Shown: positions 1 to 10,451 of the stretch, piece by piece
Layout of the letters: each line of letters starts with the position of its first letter
Position numbering within the stretch: the first letter of the stretch is position 1
Notes under the pieces: generated by a model
Database searches by the model: none
What the model saw: the letters and a program-made list of their open reading frames with translations, nothing else
Told to the model about the DNA's origin: nothing
DNA from: a virus
Taxonomy: Duplodnaviria; Heunggongvirae; Uroviricota; Caudoviricetes
Reading direction: 5' to 3' (one strand)
DNA length: 10,451 nucleotides
Virus record (IMG/VR): IMGVR_UViG_2562617113_000011
Span: 1-10,451 of that record
Program-made: the position numbers and the translations under genes

Positions 1-372
1 TTATCGCCGTAACCGCTCCGGCTTCTTCCACTGGTACGTAATTTTTTCTTTCTCCTGGTACATCTGCACGCGGCGACGGTACGACAACATCTCCAGAACT
101 CTGGTGCGTATGTTGCGTATATCCACGCCATTAAGCTCGATACCGTCACGGCGCATCACCTCAGCCATCACACGCGCGTAATTTTCAGCGGTGACTGTAT
201 CCGGCTGCGTGGCCTGTTCGTCAGCCTGCTGGCTGATTCCGGTAATACTGCGGATTATCCCGAGCGCTTCGGTCTCGGTCATGGTCATGGCCTCCATAGT
301 GATGGCGGGTCCTCCTGGTGGGGTGCCCTGCCACGGGGCGGGAGCATCGCGGAAAAAGGCTAGTTTTTGCAT
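1..372 (-). CDS. Hypothetical protein downstream of the small terminase gene (123 aa as drawn; more likely about 93 aa from an internal start at 282)
   Basis: Complete ORF whose stop codon is the first 3 nt of the window. The ATG at 372 has no convincing SD; the in-frame ATG at 282 is preceded by GGAGG with 8-nt spacing. No family recognised; a short QPDTV motif weakly recalls lambda gpFI but is insufficient to call. Confidence 0.45.
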   Translation of the reverse strand: MQKLAFFRDAPAPWQGTPPGGPAITMEAMTMTETEALGIIRSITGISQQADEQATQPDTVTAENYARVMAEVMRRDGIELNGVDIRNIRTRVLEMLSYRRRVQMYQEKEKITYQWKKPERLRR

Positions 373-491
373 TTTTATTCGTCATCACCACCAATGCAAT
401 ATATTGATATGACTTGATGTTTTATTTTTCGGTGTCGATTTCGATTGTTTTTTGTTCATCACTGACGCATAACTCCCACCAGCGCAACGCT

Positions 492-515
492 GAAAGCCAG
501 TCAGTAAACTGGCTT
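492..515 (-). other. Stem-loop (8-bp stem AAGCCAGT/ACTGGCTT, 6-nt loop) just 3' of the small terminase gene; weak U-tract
   Basis: Perfect inverted repeat seen directly in the 162-nt gap between the TerS stop (534) and the next gene. On the minus strand it is followed only by UUUCAG, so it is an attenuator or stabilising hairpin rather than a strong terminator. Confidence 0.3.
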
Positions 516-533
516 CGGTCATTGTGCACTACG

Positions 534-1076
534 TTACTTGTCTTTATCCGGCTGAAACTTATCAGGCACATTTCCGGTAGTTTCCATCAGATAATCGGAC
601 AGCATTCGCGGGATGTTTTCATCAAGTTTTGTGCATGCGTTACAGGCTCTGACAACTTCTTTTTTCAGGCCATCCAGCATGGCGGGGGTCATCTGTGGGA
701 AGCGCCTTTGCATGGTAAGCGGCAGGCTGTCCATGATAGATGAAATCTGACTCGCCAGTTTTGAAAGCGCATATATACAAAATTCCGTACTAATCACGTC
801 GCCGCGTTCGCGCTCGTTTTTAAGCTCCTGCGCCTCCGCCTGCGCTGTCAACAATCTGATCCTGACTCGCAAAAGCTCATCATTATCAATCTCGCCTTTG
901 TCGTCTGTAATCTGGTTAATTGCATTGCTAACCCGATTGTCTATTACGCTGGCAACATCATAAAACGCCTCGCGGCCTTTACGTTCAACGGGAGTCACTC
1001 CCCACTTGTCGAACGCTGTCGCACTTACACGGCAGCTTTGCGCCATGTTTTTTTTGTTCATCAGGTGCGATTTCAT
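534..1076 (-). CDS. Terminase small subunit, lambda Nu1-like (180 aa)
   Basis: The C-terminal two-thirds aligns closely to my recollection of lambda gpNu1 (e.g. AQAEAQELKN, LPLTMQRRFP, LDENIPRMLSDY); the N-terminal DNA-binding region is divergent. Start chosen at the ATG at 1076 (GGGGA SD, 5-nt spacing); alternatives are GTG 1088 and ATG 1061. Confidence 0.8.
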   Translation of the reverse strand: MKSHLMNKKNMAQSCRVSATAFDKWGVTPVERKGREAFYDVASVIDNRVSNAINQITDDKGEIDNDELLRVRIRLLTAQAEAQELKNERERGDVISTEFCIYALSKLASQISSIMDSLPLTMQRRFPQMTPAMLDGLKKEVVRACNACTKLDENIPRMLSDYLMETTGNVPDKFQPDKDK

Positions 1077-1181
1077 CAATATCCCCACTTAAGTAATGTT
1101 TCAGGTTGGTGTATTTGTTTTATCTTTCCCTTTTTATTCATAGAGATAGAGCGAACAACAAAACCACCACCAGCACCCGAA

Positions 1182-1228
1182 AAAGGCTCATAAATAGCGA
1201 AAACCCGCGCGTCTGCCGCCCCGTAACG
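1182..1228 (-). other. Lambda-like cos site (cosN-like 12-mer GGGCGGCAGACG at 1210-1221 on the minus strand, flanked by lambda-identical sequence)
   Basis: The minus strand reads CCGTTACG-GGGCGGCAGACG-CGCGGGTTTTCGCTATTTATGA. As I recall it, lambda reads GTTACG-GGGCGGCGACCT-CGCGGGTTTTCGCTATTTATGA, so the 22 nt after the 12-mer are identical and 5 of 12 overhang positions differ. It lies directly upstream of the Nu1-like gene, as in lambda. Confidence 0.6.
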
Positions 1229-1277
1229 GGTCCATATGCCGGAAAGGACCCGCCAGCCAGAGCGGGCCCTAATTTCA

Positions 1278-1622
1278 TCAACCAATCAACTTATTGCGCC
1301 CTTTCAGGGCATTACGCCTGGCGCGTTCAATCTTGAGGCATAACGCCGCATCAGGTTTTTCGGGGGTGGGAACAAGGCAATAATTTGATGCGCGCGGAAT
1401 GTTGTTAATCCACGCAACAACTTCGCTTAAATACCATGCCTTGCGGCCTTTCGTAACCTGTACGCGTTCGGGGAACTCTCCGCGAGCCTCAAGGTTTAGC
1501 AATGTGCGACGGCTAAGGGTTGTAAGCTCCACTACCTGATCCATATCGACAAGACGCTCGCTTAAGCGCATTTTATCATCGATATCTAATAGCTCTCGTA
1601 GCTGACTATCTCTTTCAATCAT
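1278..1622 (-). CDS. AlpA/excisionase-family HTH DNA-binding protein embedded in the head/packaging operon (114 aa)
   Basis: The central segment LVDMDQVVELTTLSRRTLLNLEARGEFPERVQVTKGRKAWYLSEVVAWI fits the AlpA/Vis pattern (hydrophobic-T-x-LSRsT-x(6)-G-FP ... W ... EV-x-W). ATG at 1622 lies 9 nt after the D-like stop, with GAGG overlapping that stop. Confidence 0.55.
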   Translation of the reverse strand: MIERDSQLRELLDIDDKMRLSERLVDMDQVVELTTLSRRTLLNLEARGEFPERVQVTKGRKAWYLSEVVAWINNIPRASNYCLVPTPEKPDAALCLKIERARRNALKGRNKLIG

Positions 1623-1631
1623 TCTCGTACC

Positions 1632-1973
1632 TCACACACGTGCCAGCGGCTGAACAGAAATACCTGAGCCAACAAACGCAGCAACTTTTGCTGATAGTTG
1701 TGTTACAGACTCAGGCCAGTTCAGAGCATCAACATTTAAGACGCCGGTTTTATAAACCTGAGCCTGCGTTTTTGTCGCTGTATCGATTTGTACAGCGGAA
1801 ACATAAACAGCTTTGCCTGCGCTCGTTCCATCCCATACCACCAGTGCACCAGTTACATCTTCTTGCATCAGTGGCGTAAACGCAGGGATTACCCCTTTAT
1901 TGGCTGAAAATATCCCCAGCGTAGTAACCAGTGCTTCAGTGCCAGCCATGAGTTCAGTGTAATGAGTAGCCAT
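1632..1973 (-). CDS. Head decoration protein, lambda gpD-like (113 aa)
   Basis: Size and motifs match remembered lambda gpD (PAFTPLM, VVWDGT, LNWPE, AFVGSGISV). Sits immediately downstream of the E-like gene (9-nt gap) with an AAGGGGGAG SD. Confidence 0.75.
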   Translation of the reverse strand: MATHYTELMAGTEALVTTLGIFSANKGVIPAFTPLMQEDVTGALVVWDGTSAGKAVYVSAVQIDTATKTQAQVYKTGVLNVDALNWPESVTQLSAKVAAFVGSGISVQPLARV

Positions 1974-1982
1974 TGCTCCCCC

Positions 1983-3023
1983 TTAACCAATGCGAACGGT
2001 AACAAAACGATTGATGCGGGCCGGTATTGGCTGTGGTGCAGAGTGCGTTTGTACGTACTCAATAGCCGGATCACCTGGTACGATGTAATTTTTCGGCGCA
2101 AGTTCGGCTTTAGTAAGCCCCATTCTGATTAACTCAGGATCCTGAATGCCACCGTAGGCAACGATGCCCTGTAATGATGTGTTGCCAAGCACCATCAAAT
2201 CAGGATCAAGGAAATATCTTTCAGTTCCGTCCTCGTCGGTATAACGTCCGCTATATACCACAATAGCAACATCGCCAACGTAACCCTTGAAGCTTACAGA
2301 ATCCCCAAGATTTTTCAGGGCCGTTTCAAGAACGGAATTAGATCCCCGTCGAGTATCAAGGCAATCTTTTACTGCTTTAAAGGCGCGGTATTTTTTCCAT
2401 ACGTTGCGGCCCATTACGATGATATTTGTAGTACCTTCGCTGATTTCTGCGTACTCTTCGATGTCATCGTTTGGATCAAATGTTGATAAATCTCTACCGC
2501 CCCACTCCGTACCGCCGAACTGCGTGATAATATTTTGTGGTTTTATATTCCAGTCCAGTTCATAACGTTCAATTCCATCGCCTTCAATGATATTTTTCCC
2601 CGTTGTAACCGCCTGAACAGCAAGCCACTCAATACGCGCACGAATTGCCTGCGCTTGTCTTACTAACGCTCGCTTTATTTTGAAACTGCGTGATGAATAT
2701 GCATTGAATTGTTCCGGTGATACGCCTGGTTGACGAACGGCTATTTTATTTGGGTCGATACTACTTTTTGGCTTCATATAGCCAGGACGAATTACTTTTG
2801 ATTCGTAGCCTTCATCGCGTGAGACTTTGCTACCAACCATAGGGGAACAAAATGCAGCCATCGGGATGTCTGGATCGTCAATAATATCAAGCGCAATATC
2901 CCGCGTCTCAAATGTAACGACTCGCTTAAAAAACAGGTTTATAAATAAAGAATTAATCTGCCATTGAATATCTTCGGCATTAACAACCTGTATTAACATA
3001 GCTGGTGAATATAAATCACTCAT
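1983..3023 (-). CDS. Major capsid protein, lambda gpE-like (346 aa)
   Basis: Long collinear similarity to remembered lambda gpE (NIITQFGGTEWGGRDLSTFDPNDDIEEYA, FKAVKDCLDTRRGSNSVLETA, GDVAIVVYSGRY, MVLGNT, VPGDPA); 346 aa against 341 aa for gpE; AAGAGG SD 4 nt before the ATG. Confidence 0.85.
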   Translation of the reverse strand: MSDLYSPAMLIQVVNAEDIQWQINSLFINLFFKRVVTFETRDIALDIIDDPDIPMAAFCSPMVGSKVSRDEGYESKVIRPGYMKPKSSIDPNKIAVRQPGVSPEQFNAYSSRSFKIKRALVRQAQAIRARIEWLAVQAVTTGKNIIEGDGIERYELDWNIKPQNIITQFGGTEWGGRDLSTFDPNDDIEEYAEISEGTTNIIVMGRNVWKKYRAFKAVKDCLDTRRGSNSVLETALKNLGDSVSFKGYVGDVAIVVYSGRYTDEDGTERYFLDPDLMVLGNTSLQGIVAYGGIQDPELIRMGLTKAELAPKNYIVPGDPAIEYVQTHSAPQPIPARINRFVTVRIG

Positions 3024-3207
3024 ATAACCTCTTAATACTTAGTAAAAGTGTCGCGTTAATTTTATCATCTGCCTTGTTCGGCATCTTTATGCATTGCTAT
3101 GCAATAGTGTGCAAAGTTTCAATCTTCGTTTATTTATCCGGCGTTACGTGTCATTCTGTACAGCGTTACAAGTTCAAAGACATAAATTATTCTCTTTGGT
3201 GATGAAA

Positions 3208-3234
3208 GGGTCGGAATATTCCGGCCTTTTTTTT
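3208..3234 (+). terminator. Intrinsic terminator on the plus strand (hairpin GGUCGGAAUAUUCCGGCC followed by T8)
   Basis: Palindrome CGGAATATTCCG extended by G-C and G-U pairs, then TTTTTTTT at 3227-3234. No convincing plus-strand CDS lies upstream. Confidence 0.55.
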
Positions 3235-3256
3235 GCGTGGTGTGACGGACTAAACT

Positions 3257-3281
3257 GATAAAAGCCGGATTGCTCCGGCTT
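3257..3281 (-). terminator. Intrinsic terminator ending the SSB operon (stem AAGCCGGA/TCCGGCTT, loop TTGC, then UUUUAU on the minus strand)
   Basis: Perfect 8-bp GC-rich stem located 15 nt after the SSB stop; the minus-strand read is followed by a T-run. Confidence 0.6.
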
Positions 3282-3295
3282 CTGTCACTCGTTGC

Positions 3296-3718
3296 TTAAA
3301 ACGGTATGTTATCCCCGTACGGATCATCGTTACCCGCCTGTTGTTTTGCCCTGTTCAGTGCGTCAGTAGCCTGCCCCTGCTGGCCTTTTTTGCCGCCCGG
3401 TCGCACCGTTCTCGCACTGATTACGCTGTCTGCGATAACCTGCCAGCCCTGCCGCGTTTCGCCGTTCTGGCCTGTCCACTGGCTTACCTGCATGTTACCC
3501 GCCACGCTCACCAGTTCGCCTTTGTGGTGTTTTGCCAGTGCGTCGGCCTGTCTGCCAAACGCCAGGACAGATAACCACATCGTCGCCGTTCCGTCATTTG
3601 CCTGGCTGCATGGCAGGGGAACCGCCATACTCGCCATCGCCATTTGTGTCCCTTTGCTGGTGGTCTTTAACTGCGGGTCAGCCACCAGCCGCCCGTAAGC
3701 CGCTATCTGTGCTGTCAT
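3296..3718 (-). CDS. ssb: Single-stranded DNA-binding protein (140 aa)
   Basis: OB-fold SSB pattern (GRLVADPQLK ... WLSVLAFGRQAD ... GELVSVAGNMQVSQWTGQNGETRQ), a Gly/Gln-rich linker and a C-terminal DDPYGDNIPF resembling the canonical SSB acidic tip DDDIPF. ATGA start/stop overlap with the upstream gene. Confidence 0.75.
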   Translation of the reverse strand: MTAQIAAYGRLVADPQLKTTSKGTQMAMASMAVPLPCSQANDGTATMWLSVLAFGRQADALAKHHKGELVSVAGNMQVSQWTGQNGETRQGWQVIADSVISARTVRPGGKKGQQGQATDALNRAKQQAGNDDPYGDNIPF

Positions 3719-3993
3719 GCTGTCTGCTCTCCGGTTTTAACATTGATGGTTGTCACCTGTTCCGCTTCGGCAATCTCCCGTTCTGTCAGCGTGGCAAAGT
3801 TTGCTGCCGCCGTTGTCATGAATGCGCTTATCAGGTCGGGATGTTCCTTCGCGTATCCTTCCCCCGCGTGGCGGTCTATCGTTCTGATTGCCACCTTTAA
3901 AGCGTGCTCTGTCATGTCTAACGCGCGATATTTCGGCTCTGTTCTGTCTCTGCGTTTTTTGAGTGATTTATTAAATCTCCCTGAAGTGTGCAT
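3715..3993 (-). CDS. Hypothetical protein, basic N-terminus (92 aa), translationally coupled to ssb
   Basis: ORF with a GAGGGGG SD upstream of the ATG at 3993; its stop overlaps the ssb start (ATGA). No family recognised. Confidence 0.5.
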   Translation of the reverse strand: MHTSGRFNKSLKKRRDRTEPKYRALDMTEHALKVAIRTIDRHAGEGYAKEHPDLISAFMTTAAANFATLTEREIAEAEQVTTINVKTGEQTA

Positions 3994-4040
3994 ATTTATT
4001 TTTACCCCCTCGTTTAAAAAGTTTTGAGTTGTGCCTCCCC

Positions 4041-4268
4041 TTGTCTACCTTATCTACCTTAGTGGCCCCTATGCCAGTAATGGCGCGGCTTTCAGCGGGG
4101 TAGAGTGCTTTTATCCACTATCTACTCCGTATCTACCTCCCTGTCTGATTCAGGTAAAATCAGGTAGAGAGGGTAGACAGTGGGTAGACTGTAAAAAAAG
4201 GCTGTCTACCTAACTTAATATACTGAATTAAATGTATTTTCCTTTACTCAGGTAGACAGGGTAGACAG
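4041..4268. repeat. Iteron cluster, putative origin of replication: about 9-bp GGTAGACAG/CTGTCTACC repeats in both orientations flanking an AT-rich spacer
   Basis: Direct copies at 4163-4171 (GGTAGAGAG), 4172-4180, 4183-4191 (GGTAGACTG), 4251-4259 and 4260-4268. Inverted copies at 4041-4049 and 4202-4210, with degenerate TCTACC units at 4051-4058, 4119-4127 and 4131-4137. AT-rich stretch at 4211-4250. Lies immediately 3' of the primase gene. Confidence 0.65.
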
Positions 4269-4281
4269 CAATTACAAAAAA

Positions 4282-6036
4282 TTATAAAAACGCGTCGCAC
4301 TCGTCTGTTGTTATTGCGTTAGTCTGCGTTACCCCCTTAACTTTCCGCGTAATATATTCATGTCCATAAACTTTTGCGGCAGGCTTCATAGCCTTGCCAA
4401 AGTCATTTACGTTTAGCGGTTTGCTCCTGCCTGCGTATGCCATAAACGCCAGATAGACGCGGTAAAGGCTGTTCCTGGTCGTGTACTTCACTGAATCACC
4501 ACCGCCCCCCATCATCAGGCCGCGCGCTTCCTCCAGAAAATTCAGGAACTGGCAAAACTCAATAACCGGATCCGTCTGTTGCTTTATTGCCAGTGCTTCA
4601 TCACCGTCACGCTGTTCCAGTAGTAAAGCCCGTGCCTTCTCAGGGTCGGTAAAGTTCGCCAGCAATCGGCGGATAATAACGGGGATTTCAGCCGCAATCT
4701 TTTCCGGTAGCTCCCTGTCTTTTTCGGCATCACTGACGATATTGTCGAAACGGAAAATCACGCGACGACGTGCCACACCTCCGGCCCGTTCGGTGAATAT
4801 CATCGGGTTGTTGTTGGTCGCCAGCACCACCGCCCTGATTACCGCCGTGAAACGCTTTTCATATTTCGGGTTAATTTCCACGGGGTCGCCGCCTGTGATT
4901 TTCTTGATGCCCGTTCCTTCGCCTGTATATTTCGGCTGGTCAGCCAGGACGATAAGACGACTCCCGACAACCTGCGCACGTCCACCAGCATCATCAAGCG
5001 ATGTCATTTCAGCGCTTACCGTGTTCTGTTTCCCTGCCAGAAGGCTGGCTATGTGTGTGAATGTACTTTTACCGCTCCCGCCGTCTCCGGTGGCCTCAAT
5101 AAACATCTGCCAGTCGTACCGGTTCGCCATAATCATGTACAGCGCGGCACATATACGCATCATCTTGCGCGGGTCTTTTCCGGCTGCGTGCTCAAGCCAT
5201 TTATGAAAGTTTGGCGCGTTATCGCGGATGTTTTCCCCTGGTGCTGGTAGCGTGTACTCAATGCCGTTGTGCGTGGTGATCCAGTTCTCCGGCGTGTGCG
5301 GGGAAAATTCCCCCGTTTTCAGGTCAAGCGCACCATTGGCGAACGGCAGCAAATCGCCGGACGGCTCGCCCATTGGTTCGGCAATAACTTTTAACGCTTC
5401 CACGGCGTTATTGATTACGCGCTTGCTGAAAGTGGCCCTGTGCTCTGAATAGATCGCCACCATTTCGCGGCTAAGTTCCATTGTGCTGACCGGACACCAT
5501 ACCCCGCCGCGCCATACGTGAACGATTTCACTTTCAGGATGTACGCAAACGCCATCAAAGCGATCGGCAAGCAGCTGCGCGCGCTCACTGTCCGCCATCT
5601 GCGAAAGTTGCGCCTTTTGCTTTACCGGAAGCTCAATGACCAGACCATCAGAAAGATTCTGGCGCTCACGGGCCAGATATTCGCGCCAGTTCTCCACCTT
5701 CTGACCGTGCATACCGTCAGGGTAAAAATTTGCATCCTGTACGCCTGCCGCCGCCAGCTTCTGACCAATTGCCTTTATCATTACAGGCGCAAGATATCCG
5801 GCCCTGTATATGCGTGCTGATTTTCGGCCTTCCGGCACAATTTGCAGCTTATCCAGTTCGGATAACTGCTGCTCCCCAAGCCACACAGGAGGCTCATTAT
5901 CTCCGGCCATACGCGCATCATGTTCCTGCCATTGTTTCGCGTGTGCCCAGGCATCACTACCCGCAAAAATAATGACTTCTGTTCCTTTGTGTTTTATGCC
6001 GCGTGACTGCTGTTTTACGTTCGGTGCCAGTTTCAT
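4282..6036 (-). CDS. P4-family primase/helicase replication initiator (584 aa; Walker A GDGGSGKST, SF3-type NTPase)
   Basis: P-loop GDGGSGKST and a following hydrophobic Walker-B-like stretch RLIVLADQ; overall resemblance to the helicase/C-terminal part of P4 alpha and PICI pri-rep proteins; N-terminal region possibly toprim-like. ATGA overlap with the upstream gene. Confidence 0.85.
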   Translation of the reverse strand: MKLAPNVKQQSRGIKHKGTEVIIFAGSDAWAHAKQWQEHDARMAGDNEPPVWLGEQQLSELDKLQIVPEGRKSARIYRAGYLAPVMIKAIGQKLAAAGVQDANFYPDGMHGQKVENWREYLARERQNLSDGLVIELPVKQKAQLSQMADSERAQLLADRFDGVCVHPESEIVHVWRGGVWCPVSTMELSREMVAIYSEHRATFSKRVINNAVEALKVIAEPMGEPSGDLLPFANGALDLKTGEFSPHTPENWITTHNGIEYTLPAPGENIRDNAPNFHKWLEHAAGKDPRKMMRICAALYMIMANRYDWQMFIEATGDGGSGKSTFTHIASLLAGKQNTVSAEMTSLDDAGGRAQVVGSRLIVLADQPKYTGEGTGIKKITGGDPVEINPKYEKRFTAVIRAVVLATNNNPMIFTERAGGVARRRVIFRFDNIVSDAEKDRELPEKIAAEIPVIIRRLLANFTDPEKARALLLEQRDGDEALAIKQQTDPVIEFCQFLNFLEEARGLMMGGGGDSVKYTTRNSLYRVYLAFMAYAGRSKPLNVNDFGKAMKPAAKVYGHEYITRKVKGVTQTNAITTDECDAFL

Positions 6037-6572: not shown

Positions 6573-7025
6573 TTAATCCCCGTCCGTCGCTTTTCTTAAA
6601 ATAACCTCTGTCACGAAATCAGCATAATCGGCGGCAATATTCAGTACATCAAGTCCCGTTGATTTATATTCTTTCGTGGAAAGTAAGAAAAAATCCGCTC
6701 TAATAAGTTCTGGCATTGACGAAAGCGCATCAGCCGCATCACCAGGAACGCCGGAAAATTCCTGTTTCAGGGCATTAAAACGATCATCACGCATAACCCC
6801 CCCATTTTCACAATCAGTAATCAGGATGGCTTTAGCCTCATTCAGTGCCATATCAGCACTAAATTGCATAACAGCCAGTGAGTGAGGAACGAAAGCCCCG
6901 GCATATTCTGTTTCGCTGGTGGCGTGCTTATGTGCCCTGTCCGCGATAACAGAAATATCAATCAGCGCGTGCATCAGCGTTTTGATGGCTTCGGCGGCTG
7001 CGTCCTGACGGGTGTTATTGCACAT
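6573..7025 (-). CDS. Hypothetical protein (150 aa)
   Basis: Strong AGGAGG SD 6 nt before the ATG at 7025. The longer 300-aa ORF in the track is an R/P/S-rich upstream extension and was rejected. Start overlaps the stop of the upstream gene by 11 nt. Confidence 0.55.
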   Translation of the reverse strand: MCNNTRQDAAAEAIKTLMHALIDISVIADRAHKHATSETEYAGAFVPHSLAVMQFSADMALNEAKAILITDCENGGVMRDDRFNALKQEFSGVPGDAADALSSMPELIRADFFLLSTKEYKSTGLDVLNIAADYADFVTEVILRKATDGD

Positions 7026-7557
7026 GGCGCACCTCCTGACGAATACGGGCGGCGAATACAGCGACACAACCGGACGGGCAATGGTTACGCGCTTCGCGTT
7101 CCGTCCAGGCGGTGACGTGGATGATTTGGGATTCTGACGCGCCAAAGATGATAAAGCGCCAGATAAAGACAGTGTGAGAATGTATAAGGGTAGGGATAGT
7201 AGCCATGTTGGCAGCCTCCTTTGACAGTGAAGAATTTCCACCGCAGGAAACGCCAATTTCGCTGGCGGTGGACTGAACGGGGTTGGCGTAACCGGCGTCA
7301 AAGGGAACCGGCGCTTCCGAAGAAGCCCCCGCCCAGCCCACCATAACTTTGATGTGAGCGAATGCGGACGATAAAAAAGACGCTGGCGCGTCATATATCG
7401 CCTTTGACATTTCCAAGACGCCAATCCCGGCACCAGATTTTGCTGGTGCGGGTAAATCATAGCCCTGGCTGGCATTGGCGATCAACAGGTTTTTTACATC
7501 GGGTTTATTCAGGTTGTGCGAGTCCCGCCCTTGCGGGTGTGTGGTATGATTTAACAT
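7015..7557 (-). CDS. First gene of the replication operon: Ash-family-like N-terminal region fused in frame to an Icd-like (host cell division inhibitor-like) C-terminal region (180 aa)
   Basis: The N-terminal half carries motifs I associate with P4-like Ash proteins (AKSGAGIGV, MVGWAG, PVPFDAGYANPVQSTASEIGVS). The C-terminal 63 aa (FIWRF ... ESQIIHVTAWTEREARNHC ... AVFAARIRQEV) resembles Icd-like proteins and has its own AAGGAGG SD before an internal ATG at 7206. GAGGT SD before the ATG at 7557. Family assignment is from memory. Confidence 0.5.
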   Translation of the reverse strand: MLNHTTHPQGRDSHNLNKPDVKNLLIANASQGYDLPAPAKSGAGIGVLEMSKAIYDAPASFLSSAFAHIKVMVGWAGASSEAPVPFDAGYANPVQSTASEIGVSCGGNSSLSKEAANMATIPTLIHSHTVFIWRFIIFGASESQIIHVTAWTEREARNHCPSGCVAVFAARIRQEVRHVQ

Positions 7558-7649
7558 AGCTACCTCGATACTTCTGCTATCGTTGGTGGTTAGAAGCCCT
7601 GCGAGTGGTAACGACACTTGCGGGGCTTTGCATTTATGCGCCTTGATAA

Positions 7650-7730
7650 TTTTAAGGTGTGGCCCACTATATGTTTTAGGTGTGGCCCACGTCAAGAGTT
7701 TTATTTGTGCTTTTTCTGTGTATACTGTCC
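7650..7730. promoter_or_regulatory. Divergent promoter/operator region: two 13-bp direct repeats AGGTGTGGCCCAC (7655-7667, 7678-7690) overlapping candidate sigma70 promoters on both strands
   Basis: Minus strand: -35 TTGACG (plus 7690-7695), 18-bp spacer, -10 TATAGT (plus 7666-7671), so both repeats fall in the -35/spacer/-10 region. Plus strand: -10 TATACT (7721-7726) with upstream TGTG, 30 nt before the RHH-like gene. Each repeat contains the dyad GTGG-C-CCAC. Confidence 0.55.
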
Positions 7731-7756
7731 CCCACCAATCCACCAGAGGAATAGAA

Positions 7757-7936
7757 ATGGCAACGGGTACAACAAACGCAAAATCACAAGCTCTAAAGGC
7801 TCGTGTACCACACGAAATAGTAAACGCCATGGAATCAGTGAAAGAATCAGGCGAAAGCACATCACAATTCATCATTACGTCAATGCAAGGCGAGATCAAA
7901 CGCCGCCAGCGGCGCAAGGCCAAAGAGCAGGAGTAA
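7757..7936 (+). CDS. Small DNA-binding-like protein, possibly ribbon-helix-helix (59 aa); candidate repressor acting at the adjacent repeats
   Basis: GAGGAA SD 6 nt before the ATG; the N-terminal segment KSQALKARVPHEIVNAMESV resembles an Arc/CopG-type strand-helix; basic C-terminal tail. Fold is inferred, not computed. Confidence 0.55.
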   Translation: MATGTTNAKSQALKARVPHEIVNAMESVKESGESTSQFIITSMQGEIKRRQRRKAKEQE

Positions 7937-7993
7937 CCATCACCAGCGCTGTGGTGCGGTGAACTGTGGCGCACTGGGTTACAGGTATCTACG

Positions 7994-8191
7994 ATGACTG
8001 ACAAATCATTAAAGAAATTATCCTCATCCAGGAAAAAACAACGCAAAAATGCGGTAAGCGAACAAGAACAGGAGAGATTTGCGCCATGTGCGTTTGCCCT
8101 TGAGAAGTTCTTAAAAGAGTACAGGCGCACAAAAATGGGGTCGCATACCTGGAAAACATCGCGGCATGGCAATGTTAAAGAGCAGGAATAG
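7994..8191 (+). CDS. Hypothetical highly basic small protein (65 aa); coding status uncertain
   Basis: ORF following the RHH-like gene in the same orientation with a weak SD (AGGT, 7-nt spacing); K/R-rich, no motif recognised. A plus-strand terminator follows at 8295-8322. Confidence 0.35.
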   Translation: MTDKSLKKLSSSRKKQRKNAVSEQEQERFAPCAFALEKFLKEYRRTKMGSHTWKTSRHGNVKEQE

Positions 8192-8294
8192 CCCACCAGC
8201 AAGCCAGCACACTGATCACATTGCCCACCAGCCGCAAATGTGGCATTGTTGGCAATGCTCATGCGTTGGGGATAACGTGTAGCTTGTGTCGAAG

Positions 8295-8322
8295 GGCCAC
8301 CGTAGCGGGTGGCCTTTGTTTT
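8295..8322 (+). terminator. Intrinsic terminator for the small plus-strand operon (stem GGCCACC/GGTGGCC, then TTTGTTTT)
   Basis: 7-bp GC stem with a 6-nt loop followed by a T-rich tract on the plus strand only. Confidence 0.55.
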
Positions 8323-8360
8323 GCCTGTTATCCGGCAATTGTGGCGCTTCGCTACACGGT

Positions 8361-8446
8361 TGATATAATCCCACTGCACTGATTCATTTTTTGCGCAGTA
8401 GGTTAATTGTTCGCAAGGGCGCTCCGGCAACGGGGCGCTTTTTGTT
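8361..8446 (+). ncRNA. Candidate small RNA unit: extended -10 promoter (TGaTATAAT, 8361-8369) followed about 50 nt later by a strong intrinsic terminator (8419-8446)
   Basis: Perfect TATAAT preceded by TGn; hairpin GCGCUCCG-GCAA-CGGGGCGC (GNRA-type loop) followed by TTTTTGTT; no ATG-initiated ORF between them. Lies on the opposite strand just past the 3' end of alpA. Confidence 0.3.
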
Positions 8447-8473
8447 ATGTTCATCGCGTTACGCCTCACACCA

Positions 8474-8680
8474 TTACGCAGCCGTTCCGCGCGCTTCTTC
8501 CTCGCGCTCTTTCAGCCAGGCCAGCACTTCATCTTCATACCAGCCAACACGACGCAGACCGATTTTGAAGCCTTTCGGGAATTTTCCTGCGTTGATCATG
8601 TCCTGTAGCGAACTGTCTGCCTTGATGCGCAGAATATTTTTTACTTCCTGACGGGTAAGTATTTTTCTGATTGTTTCCAC
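8474..8680 (-). CDS. alpA: AlpA/Vis-family phage transcriptional regulator / excisionase-like protein (68 aa)
   Basis: HTH pattern LRIKADSSLQDMINAGKFPKGFKIGLRRVGWYEDEVLAWL typical of AlpA; GTG start at 8680 with GAGGT SD 8 nt upstream; position next to the integrase. Confidence 0.8.
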   Translation of the reverse strand: METIRKILTRQEVKNILRIKADSSLQDMINAGKFPKGFKIGLRRVGWYEDEVLAWLKEREEEARGTAA

Positions 8681-8813
8681 TATGTTTTACCTCGTTAATC
8701 CGGCGTATTCCGGTGATAAATACGGTAAAACAGGGCTGGGCGGGAAAAACAGTACCCACCGTTTTAAAACGGTATCCACTGTTTTTTATCTCATTGATTA
8801 CGCTTTTCTTTCT

Positions 8814-8846
8814 GCAAAAAAATAGCGACCGCAAAGGGCCGCTATT
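8814..8846 (-). terminator. Intrinsic terminator after the integrase-proximal small gene (10-bp stem with one mismatch, then a U6-8 tract on the minus strand)
   Basis: Inverted repeat AATAGCGACC/GGCCGCTATT (8821-8846) followed on the minus strand by an A-run on the plus strand (8815-8820), i.e. U-tract. Confidence 0.55.
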
Positions 8847-8850
8847 GTGA

Positions 8851-9093
8851 TTACCGTTTCCACTTCTTAGGTCGCCCACCGCATTTAAGGCTGGTGGGCC
8901 TCAGCACCTTGTCGATGCTTTCAGCCAGATTTTTCGATGCACCACGCGAGCGCAAAAAACTGACTACCTCGTGTTTTGTGGGGGCTGTTGATTTGTCTTC
9001 CGGATCGTATGTTGACCAGAATTCACGATTTGCCATTAACGCCAGTTGCAGCCCTTCGCCGCAAGCAGGGGATACCTTTTCATTGAAAAACAC
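8851..9093 (-). CDS. Hypothetical protein downstream of the integrase (80 aa), basic C-terminus GGRPKKWKR
   Basis: GTG start at 9093 with AAGGAG SD 8 nt upstream; followed by an intrinsic terminator. No family recognised. Confidence 0.45.
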   Translation of the reverse strand: MFFNEKVSPACGEGLQLALMANREFWSTYDPEDKSTAPTKHEVVSFLRSRGASKNLAESIDKVLRPTSLKCGGRPKKWKR

Positions 9094-9209
9094 CTGGATA
9101 GCTCCTTGAATTTCATGATTTGGGTGACTCCTCTCTGTATTGGGTGGGTTGTGGCGATTATACGATGGTTTAGCATGGTTTGCATCGCTTTTACTGGTTT
9201 TTTGTACAG

Positions 9210-10451
9210 TTACACGGCACGGATACCCCTTTTACCACTGGCTATGGTCACTCCGGTAGCTGCGGCCTCTACAAATTCCCCCCACCAGCGCATAAGCACC
9301 ACGCGCTTTTCCAGGTAGTTACTTCGGTTATATGCTCGCCTTACCTCGTTCGTGTCCACGTGTGCGAGTGCGGCCTCGATTACGTCCGGCTCGAATCCTT
9401 CCTCGTTCGCTGCTGTACTGAATATGGCGCGTAATCCGTGAGACACCAGCACACCAGCGTATCCCATCCGGCGCAATGCAGCGTTAGCGGTCTGGCTGTT
9501 CATTGGCAGCATTGGATTTTTAAGGCTGGGAAAAACATGTTCCCTGTGTGCGCTGATTGGCTTCATTGTTTCCAGTACAGCCATCGCCTGACCGCAAAGA
9601 GGGATCACATGGTCACGGCGCATCTTCATGCGTCCGGCTGGAATCGTCCATGTTTCGGCATCGAGATCTATTTCTTCCCAGCGTGCGGCGGCTGCTTCGG
9701 CTGGGCGTGCTACGGTCAGCAGTTGCCACTCGATTAGCAATCTGGTTTGCCGTTCTATGCTGGCGACCGATAAATCGTGCATTAGCTGCGGTAGCTGTTC
9801 CGGTCGGATGGTTGGCATATGCTTTTTAGTGGGGGAAGGGAATGCCTTGCGGACGTTCGCGGCGGTGTTGATGTCAATCAGCCCACTGTTGGCAGCAAAA
9901 TCCATCACTTCATTGATGCGTTGTAAAACGCGTTTCAGAGTTTCCAGGTTGCCGCGTGCTTTAATGGGTGTGAGTATCTCAACAAAGCGGCGAGCGGTGA
10001 GGGTATCTATTGGCGTGTTTCCGATGTACGGGAATACGTATTTTTCCAGGGATCGCCAGATATCCTTAATCGTGTTGTAAGCCAGATTCTGGCCTTTTTT
10101 CATCTCGTACCAGTCCAAGGCAACTTTTTCGAACGTGTTGCCCTTTTTCCTGCTCTCTGCTTCACGTTTCCGGCGTTCGTAGTCCTGTGGGTCAGTTCCC
10201 TTTGCTATGAGTGACCTGTATTCATTCCGTCGCTCTCTGGCATCAGACAGGGAAACATCATTTAGCGATCCAAGGCTGATAATAGTCCGTTTTTTATCTG
10301 CCGGGCGGTAGTACGTAAAACGCCAGATTTTTGATCCGGAGGGCTTCACCAGAAGAAATAATCCTCCGCCATCCTGCAGGGTATATTCCTTTTCCCCTGG
10401 TCGTGCGTTTTTGATCTCCGTAATAGTTAGTGGGGTGGTTTTTCGTGCCAT
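9210..10451 (-). CDS. int: P4-type tyrosine integrase (site-specific recombinase, 413 aa)
   Basis: N-terminus MARKTTPLTITEIKNARPGEKEYTLQDGGGLFLLVKPSGSKIWRFTYY is typical of P4/CP4-57-type integrases; C-terminal catalytic region with HGLR and the RRAYNRSNY tyrosine motif. The start codon is the last 3 nt of the window. Confidence 0.9.
   Translation of the reverse strand: MARKTTPLTITEIKNARPGEKEYTLQDGGGLFLLVKPSGSKIWRFTYYRPADKKRTIISLGSLNDVSLSDARERRNEYRSLIAKGTDPQDYERRKREAESRKKGNTFEKVALDWYEMKKGQNLAYNTIKDIWRSLEKYVFPYIGNTPIDTLTARRFVEILTPIKARGNLETLKRVLQRINEVMDFAANSGLIDINTAANVRKAFPSPTKKHMPTIRPEQLPQLMHDLSVASIERQTRLLIEWQLLTVARPAEAAAARWEEIDLDAETWTIPAGRMKMRRDHVIPLCGQAMAVLETMKPISAHREHVFPSLKNPMLPMNSQTANAALRRMGYAGVLVSHGLRAIFSTAANEEGFEPDVIEAALAHVDTNEVRRAYNRSNYLEKRVVLMRWWGEFVEAAATGVTIASGKRGIRAV

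Follow-up and report, generated by a model that had tools for sequence, protein, structure and literature searches.

The window, by which we mean the whole stretch of 10,451 nucleotides that was analysed, covers the half of a phage satellite that is devoted to regulation and replication. In a near-identical E. coli genome the element is integrated beside tRNA-Pro and yejM. Reading inwards from the integrase, its main features are:

10451..9210, minus strand: integrase
Between integrase and alpA, minus strand: an 80-aa ORF
8474-8680, minus strand: alpA (68 aa; Pfam Phage_AlpA, E = 4.5e-8), the activator gene upstream of the eta-like frame
7015-8469, minus strand: P4 eta-like read-through frame, 484 codons
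8292-8317, plus strand: terminator T1 of the plus-strand operon (terminator scan)
7994-8191, plus strand: 65-aa ORF, second gene of the plus-strand operon
7757-7936, plus strand: YlcI/YnfO-family gene (NCBIfam, E = 5e-19)
7373-7449, minus strand: isrK (Rfam, 70.5 bits)
7261-7348, minus strand: C4/P4-CI immunity RNA (Rfam, 82 bits)
6036..4282, minus strand: primase

The C4 RNA is followed by small minus-strand ORFs, one Icd-like segment among them, and then by the primase. Genes for SSB, capsid and small terminase lie downstream of the primase in the near-identical genome, and matching ORFs are present in the window. Positions 1-4300 of the window (matching CDSs: locus L001, 1818-5775) hold major capsid, head decoration and small terminase genes. 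Because capsid and terminase genes occur alongside P4-type RNA immunity and a primase, the element resembles a capsid-forming PICI whose regulatory core is P4-like. The gene layout of EcCICFT073, the model Gram-negative PICI, is the same as that in the window. Gram-negative PICIs are turned on by AlpA, an activator of its own promoter, and in EcCICFT073 both that promoter and a reporter fusion to the following ORF are activated by AlpA (PMC6092414). This AlpA-responsive ORF is likely the eta-like frame.

A preliminary description of the locus had proposed a small regulatory RNA between the plus-strand operon and alpA by analogy with the immunity RNA of P4-family elements. The analogy did not survive closer inspection: the C4 and isrK RNAs match elsewhere, at 7261-7449 on the minus strand, while the proposed unit has no Rfam match, and we rejected it as a P4-type immunity RNA. 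The c4-a1b1 target (locus 7373-7462, minus strand) scores 39.9 bits in Rfam, just under its gathering score, and a promoter-like TTGATC-18-TATGAT at 7485..7456 ends 7 nt before isrK, mirroring the PLE promoter of P4. Judging from these matches, 7261-7462 on the minus strand is the element's actual P4/P1-type RNA immunity locus. In a duplex test of C4 pairing with the candidate RNA or with an element at 8219-8265, the known a1b1 control was itself not significant. The latter element, of ~45 nt (CATTGCCCACCAGCCGCAAATGTGGCATTGTTGGCAATG, plus strand), lies in the 3' UTR of the plus-strand operon; it hardly varies, even where the flanks of relatives are unrelated, and includes an imperfect inverted repeat. 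The motif GCCCACCAGC is present twice, within this element and at 8191-8200, and CACCAGC..AAAT-like motifs also occur in the isrK 5' hairpin and in an insert carried by some relatives (type B, below).

The unit under study spans 8361-8446 on the plus strand and is made up as follows:

8361-8369, plus strand: extended -10 element TGATATAAT (TG at 8361-8362, TATAAT at 8364-8369)
8376..8392, plus strand: predicted RNA 5' end (start placed at ~8374-8378 from the -10) and variable U-rich 5' segment
8393..8416, plus strand: conserved single-stranded 'seed' GCGCAGTAGGTTAATTGTTCGCAA, common to types A-D
8415-8446, plus strand: terminator T2 (arms 8415-8426 and 8431-8442, GCAA loop 8427-8430)

The anatomy given in the preliminary description was borne out, namely an extended -10, a GNRA-looped GC hairpin and T-tract on the same strand, a position between the terminator of the plus-strand operon (T1) and the 3' end of alpA, and convergence of the plus-strand unit with the minus-strand alpA. 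The unit was also correctly described as lacking an ORF: neither the ORF list nor comparison with relatives revealed a conserved plus-strand ORF inside it, and the TTG ORFs at 8391 and 8407 need terminator read-through into non-conserved sequence. A good -35 for TGATATAAT was not found; TTGTGG at 8339-8344 sits 19 nt upstream. The string TGNTATAAT occurs once in the whole window, both strands counted, where 0.35 occurrences are expected by chance and at least one was seen in 63 of 200 shuffles. Taken alone, a single occurrence per window is compatible with chance, and it is through comparison with relatives, not through single-sequence statistics, that the unit stands above it.

The T2 stem has 12 pairs, seven of them G-C, and its T-run (8439-8443) is followed by GTT to 8446. 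The hairpin ranks first of 14 terminator-like sites in a terminator scan of 7000-10451, with a core fold of -17 kcal/mol; the T-run comprises five uninterrupted T's and is broken in type B (TTTCTCTTTTT). Given a start at ~8376, the RNA would be ~70 nt long, with an MFE of -24 kcal/mol (z = -2.3) that comes mainly from the terminator. Both a small 5' stem (CTGC/GCAG) and the 5' hairpin of the MFE fold (UUGCGCAGU/AUUG..CGCAA) were rejected, as compensatory changes across variants support neither, and the 5' two-thirds of the RNA are modelled here as unstructured. The Rfam covariance search that had been suggested for 8370-8446 matched no family. It was run over the whole window (Rfam 15, permissive filters) and returned no family at gathering score for 8361-8446, the best match overlapping the unit being sau-6072 (8391-8445, E = 5.2), whose 19.2 bits fall short of the gathering score of 50. 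A degenerate direct repeat, TCCGGCAA(TTGT/CGG)GGCGCTT, lies at 8332-8352, upstream of the promoter, and at 8422-8444, in the 3' arm of T2.

Of 5,426 complete E. coli genomes, 444 (~8%) carry the 101-nt unit, always in the chromosome, CFT073 (EcCICFT073) and O104:H4 among them. When one genome per species was scanned with the seed pattern, Escherichia ruysiae was recovered and otherwise chance matches; since the seed extends beyond E. coli just to this species, deep covariation is out of reach. The phage and plasmid collections contained no informative annotated homologue of the unit. Our sample for comparison, drawn from two IMG/VR pattern scans together with the E. coli loci, held 126 copies, 59 of them unique. 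Every copy shares GCAG(Y)AGG..GTTC(R)(N)AA(R)GGCG and T2, and four unrelated types can be told apart by their 5' halves:

Type A (window): TGATATAAT, 24 nt to GCGCAG
Type B (e.g. O104:H4): TTCACT-17-TATAAT, 26 nt to GCGCAG
Type D: TTCACA-17-TAAAAT, 25 nt to GCGCAG
Type C (10 copies): no convincing promoter

The -10 thus lies 24-26 nt from the seed in three unrelated 5' halves (A, B and D), and the type-B promoter is the sole promoter-like match in 550 nt of the O104:H4 locus (L004). That three unrelated -10 elements are equally spaced is our strongest argument that transcription would start upstream of the seed. Among 39 unique relatives of the window, picked on overall similarity and not on the -10, TGATATAAT is exact in 38; the spacer and discriminator vary, so that the -10 forms a peak of conservation. 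The 5' segment is the most variable part of the unit (14 of 23 columns vary). The seed varies in just six of 24 columns among type-A copies and differs at 3-6 positions between types (AGGTTAATTG, AGGCTATTCG, AAGCGATTTG).

Pairing in T2 is well kept, with 92% of pair cells retained across 20 variants. The changes include one C-G to A-U double change and several that are wobble (G-U)-compatible, and register-shifted variants still fold, one of them with matching insertions in both arms. The plus-strand fold (-11 to -17 kcal/mol) is stronger than its minus-strand complement (-5.4 to -12.9 kcal/mol) in 15 of 15 variants. These patterns indicate that T2 is maintained as a plus-strand RNA hairpin; with copies so closely related (~90% identity), formal covariation gives a modest signal, a single pair being doubly changed. 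As T1 already ends the plus-strand operon, T2 would be redundant unless transcription restarts between the two. Relatives that lack the unit have T1 alone, type C has T2 alone and no T1, and types A, B and D have T1, their own promoter and T2; a parity of one terminator per promoter holds across these architectures.

The unit behaves as a module. Homology to many relatives ends at 8446, the end of the T-run, while in some contexts it runs ~10 nt further and takes in the eta-like start codon, and at least five different contexts lie downstream of the boundary. About a quarter of relatives bearing the neighbouring conserved element lack the unit, and in one (L007, ~2590-2620) the promoter and seed are missing from between the two copies of the short degenerate direct repeat, in what looks like a deletion. 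The unit is thus dispensable. In type C copies (L154, L158, L164, L167 and others), the seed and T2 directly follow a different RHH-like plus-strand gene. There, the module would be the 3' UTR end of a plus-strand transcript, which suggests that the free-standing unit may have evolved from, or may alternate with, a 3' UTR-derived form. In the O104:H4 locus (L004, 2600-2766) and in other type B and D copies, a 141-nt insert separates T1 from the unit promoter; as its length is a multiple of three, the minus-strand frame is preserved.

That frame bears on a further point, which the preliminary description had missed. The minus strand is not intergenic here, and the unit lies over the 5' part of the alpA-coupled eta-like frame. 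The frame begins 4-19 nt past the alpA stop, with a GTG at 8469, 4 nt past that stop, and a GAGG Shine-Dalgarno and ATG at 8454-8452. From there it passes in antisense across T2, the remainder of the unit, T1 and the plus-strand operon, then covers isrK and C4, and its last part is the Icd-like segment. Residues 340-428 match Pfam Phage_ASH, as does P4 eta, and residues 435-478 match the Icd-like NCBIfam model; the corresponding 428-aa frame of CFT073 had no Pfam match at an E of 0.01 or better. In the P4 genome, eta is located at 8168..8812, where it overlaps the end of vis and spans PLE, the isrK-like leader and CI.

Among 111 unique relatives, 106 have the eta-like frame open over 250 codons or more (median ~360-410), compared with a median of 55 codons for the next-longest frame at the same point, and five of six landmark spacing classes (170, 158, 164, 311 and 317 nt) leave the same remainder on division by 3. 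Across 8192-8446, variable sites fall on the three codon positions as 33/35/28, with no codon periodicity, and on this split we rejected protein-coding constraint on the minus frame as the cause of conservation. From the long open frame and modulo-3 spacing, coupled with these evenly distributed substitutions, we judge that selection acts on the openness of the eta-like frame and not on its amino-acid sequence. By analogy, openness without protein constraint would be expected of a P4 eta-type frame, and the frame in the window resembles one in being long, coupled to alpA (vis in P4), kept open, and laid across an internal promoter and immunity RNA. In the two plus-strand genes, the third codon positions of both strands coincide.

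The start of the frame is itself a recurrent feature. A Shine-Dalgarno and ATG lie 8-26 nt from the end of T2 in about half of the copies analysed, and these start sites fall in three independent contexts, comprising two alpA alleles and one ant gene whose stop overlaps the eta-like ATG. In several relatives, the gene upstream of the frame is an ant/BRO-type antirepressor. In the window, translation of the eta-like frame is coupled to that of alpA, judging from this arrangement. Where the context is of the CFT073 type, the frame starts ~250 nt upstream, in a truncated BRO-N gene, so that the RNA would pair inside the frame rather than at its start. On the minus strand a T-run is lacking at T1 and T2 alike, which, together with the AlpA-dependent downstream reporter (PMC6092414), makes minus-strand read-through across the unit plausible. 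In RefSeq the unit and operon are overlaid, differently from genome to genome, by pseudogenes or by CDSs called 'Icd-like', 'BRO-N' or 'hypothetical protein' (L003 2273-3035, L005 2490-2660, L006 1929-2828, L009 2204-2995 and L033 8633-9002). These are fragments of the eta-like frame, inconsistently annotated, and the layered coding of a plus-strand operon and RNA unit inside a minus-strand frame has been overlooked in annotation.

The explanation which best accommodates these observations, and which we adopt tentatively at slightly less than even confidence, is that the unit is an independent small transcription unit giving a cis-antisense RNA against the early eta-like frame. The promoter and terminator anatomy, the modular conservation, the selection for a plus-strand hairpin, the open minus frame and its coupling to alpA can each be read, with the qualifications above, from the sequences themselves. 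We infer, in addition, that transcription yields this RNA, that it forms a duplex with its target and that the duplex leads to termination. The constitutive extended -10 (8361-8369) would give a plus-strand RNA from ~8376, and T2 would end it at ~8443-8446, yielding ~70 nt with no ORF. In the window, this RNA would have its exact complement in positions +9 to ~+79 of the eta-like frame (codons ~3-27), and the eta-like ATG (8454-8452) lies 6 nt past its 3' end. As the minus strand beneath the unit is the eta-like frame, the RNA would be cis-antisense to that frame rather than to alpA. The proposal of a small regulatory RNA may accordingly be kept as the best reading of a conserved, ORF-less cassette, with the eta-like frame and not alpA as its target; an effect on the 3' end of alpA, which had also been suggested, finds no overlap to act through, the predicted RNA ending 28 nt before the alpA stop.

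The antisense RNA would pair with the early eta-like coding region, and pairing would either hinder the loading or movement of ribosomes or create a ~70-bp duplex as a substrate for RNase III; with pairing so close to the start codon, initiation could be hindered. In the CFT073-type context, an internal block or cleavage alone would apply. Leaky alpA transcripts, having lost translation, would then terminate before the isrK/C4, icd-like and primase genes, and the outcome would be a threshold on the self-activating loop of AlpA. The weaknesses of this model are the ten type C copies without a convincing promoter, the optional nature of the unit, the pairing away from the frame's start in the CFT073-type context, the low divergence of the copies and the five-T run.

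Some of these same features may be explained without any functional RNA. T2 could be no more than a terminator that provides back-up or insulation, protecting alpA and int from plus-strand transcription, its neighbouring -10 being incidental or a decaying promoter, such as a -10-like sequence left from duplication and recombination at the module junction. The unit is, after all, optional among relatives and located exactly on a recombination boundary; type C employs T2 as an ordinary operon terminator with no promoter; a lone TGNTATAAT per window is not unlikely by chance; and the degenerate copy of the T2 3' half at 8332-8352 suggests a history of duplication. We nevertheless consider this unlikely, as a near-consensus -10 recurs 24-26 nt from the seed in each of three unrelated 5' halves, the -10 stands out as conserved between flanks that vary and, with the operon already ended by T1, a T2 selected for folding on the plus strand calls for transcription arising between the two terminators. 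A role on the minus strand, with plus-strand transcription irrelevant, strikes us as improbable. Under such a role the 3' module would be kept as the eta-like initiation region and first codons, for instance as a hairpin immediately following the ATG and forcing translation to depend on that of alpA or ant. The wobble changes speak against this, since they favour the plus-strand fold and give A-C mismatches in the minus RNA, as do the lack of codon periodicity in substitutions and the position of the module internal to the frame in the CFT073 context; the promoters and the plus-strand T-run would, moreover, be left unexplained. It is nonetheless consistent with the Shine-Dalgarno and ATG found 8-26 nt from T2, beside the upstream stop, in three independent contexts, with length variants that keep the frame, and with a hairpin that forms in the minus RNA too (~-11 kcal/mol).

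Nor do we give much credence to the idea that the RNA works in trans with a chaperone, its seed (8393-8416) regulating mRNAs of the host or a helper phage and its overlap with the eta-like frame being incidental. Its architecture would be typical of such sRNAs, with an unstructured conserved segment, a strong terminator hairpin and a U tail; the type-C module, as an mRNA 3' end, follows the pattern of 3'UTR-derived sRNAs; and E. coli prophages commonly encode sRNAs that act in trans (preprint 10.64898/2026.05.13.724894). When the seed was compared by RNAduplex with all 75-nt pieces of the window, however, no duplex outdid shuffled seeds, the best non-self energy being -28.6 against shuffle maxima of -28 to -35, and a BLAST search for complementarity to E. 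coli phages found none, returning only chance matches in unrelated phages. Variation of the seed at 3-6 positions between types is tolerable for a cis pair but unexpected of a shared trans seed.

Returning to the cis-antisense RNA, its wider significance is a more speculative matter. It is possible, though we rate it as doubtful, that the RNA is a previously unrecognised second immunity layer of Gram-negative PICIs and P4-like satellites, acting through an antisense block of the alpA-coupled eta-like frame. If true, termination would be re-imposed on AlpA-promoter transcripts, which are insensitive to immunity in the P4 scheme, and one could explain how repressor-less PICIs such as EcCICFT073 hold the AlpA loop off until a helper phage boosts alpA. 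No master repressor has been identified for Gram-negative PICIs, and the silencing of the AlpA loop is the question at stake; an antisense RNA just after alpA, inside the frame that licenses read-through, would, if real, be a concrete brake.

Comparison with known systems places these proposals in context. In P4, translation of eta is coupled to vis, the alpA homologue, and lets transcripts from the upstream late promoter escape termination in the immunity region (PMC10111431). The window frame is similarly coupled to alpA, spans an internal promoter, an isrK/seqA-like leader and C4/CI, and shares Phage_ASH with eta. It differs in length, at 484 codons versus 214 in P4, and its extra ~950 nt hold the plus-strand operon and the candidate unit in antisense, both absent from P4. 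The P4 CI and P1 C4 RNAs, with seqA/isrK (RF01695, RF01394, RF03163), belong to the same type of element as the candidate and, if the model is right, serve the same end, namely the premature termination of the replication operon. They lie at another locus and strand (7261-7449, minus) and differ in structure, and the candidate matches none of their models. CI is processed from a leader, whereas the candidate is bounded by its own promoter and terminator; CI acts on transcripts of the internal promoter, whereas the candidate would act on those of the alpA promoter.

Two further comparisons were set aside. Esr41 (RF02676) is an Rfam family, and the candidate had no match to it in the Rfam scan. 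The Pas sRNAs reside in lambdoid prophage regions, PasB inside a structural-gene operon, and are set apart by location from a candidate in a satellite regulatory region. The satellite and prophage-sRNA literature that we searched makes no mention of an RNA at this site, and looking for the sequence itself in that literature gave no relevant match.

The closest parallels in design are with antisense RNAs of temperate phages. Lambda OOP is a 77-nt constitutive antisense RNA that overlaps the 3' end of cII and acts through duplex formation and RNase III cleavage. The candidate would likewise be short, constitutive, antisense, terminator-ended and convergent with a key regulator gene; it differs from OOP in stopping 28 nt short of the alpA stop and overlapping the next frame instead, and the two share no homology. 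P22 Sar is an ORF-less RNA of ~70 nt from the immI regulatory region, with its own opposite-strand promoter and an intrinsic terminator, and is complementary to the junction where an upstream regulator gene gives way to the next translated frame. All of these traits have counterparts in the candidate, which has a predicted length of ~70 nt, is ORF-less and within a regulatory operon, is furnished with an opposite-strand promoter and intrinsic terminator of its own, and is complementary to the junction of a regulator gene and the next frame. There is no relationship to Sar in sequence or in Rfam, the target is an eta-like read-through frame rather than ant, and the complementarity begins at codon 3-4 and leaves the Shine-Dalgarno uncovered. 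The architecture of Sar and OOP is nevertheless reproduced by a unit that lies inside 7015-8469, ends 6 nt from the ATG and carries its own promoter and terminator. It is plausible, then, that the candidate is an unannotated cis-antisense sRNA in the style of P22 Sar and lambda OOP, with a new kind of target in the eta-type frame.
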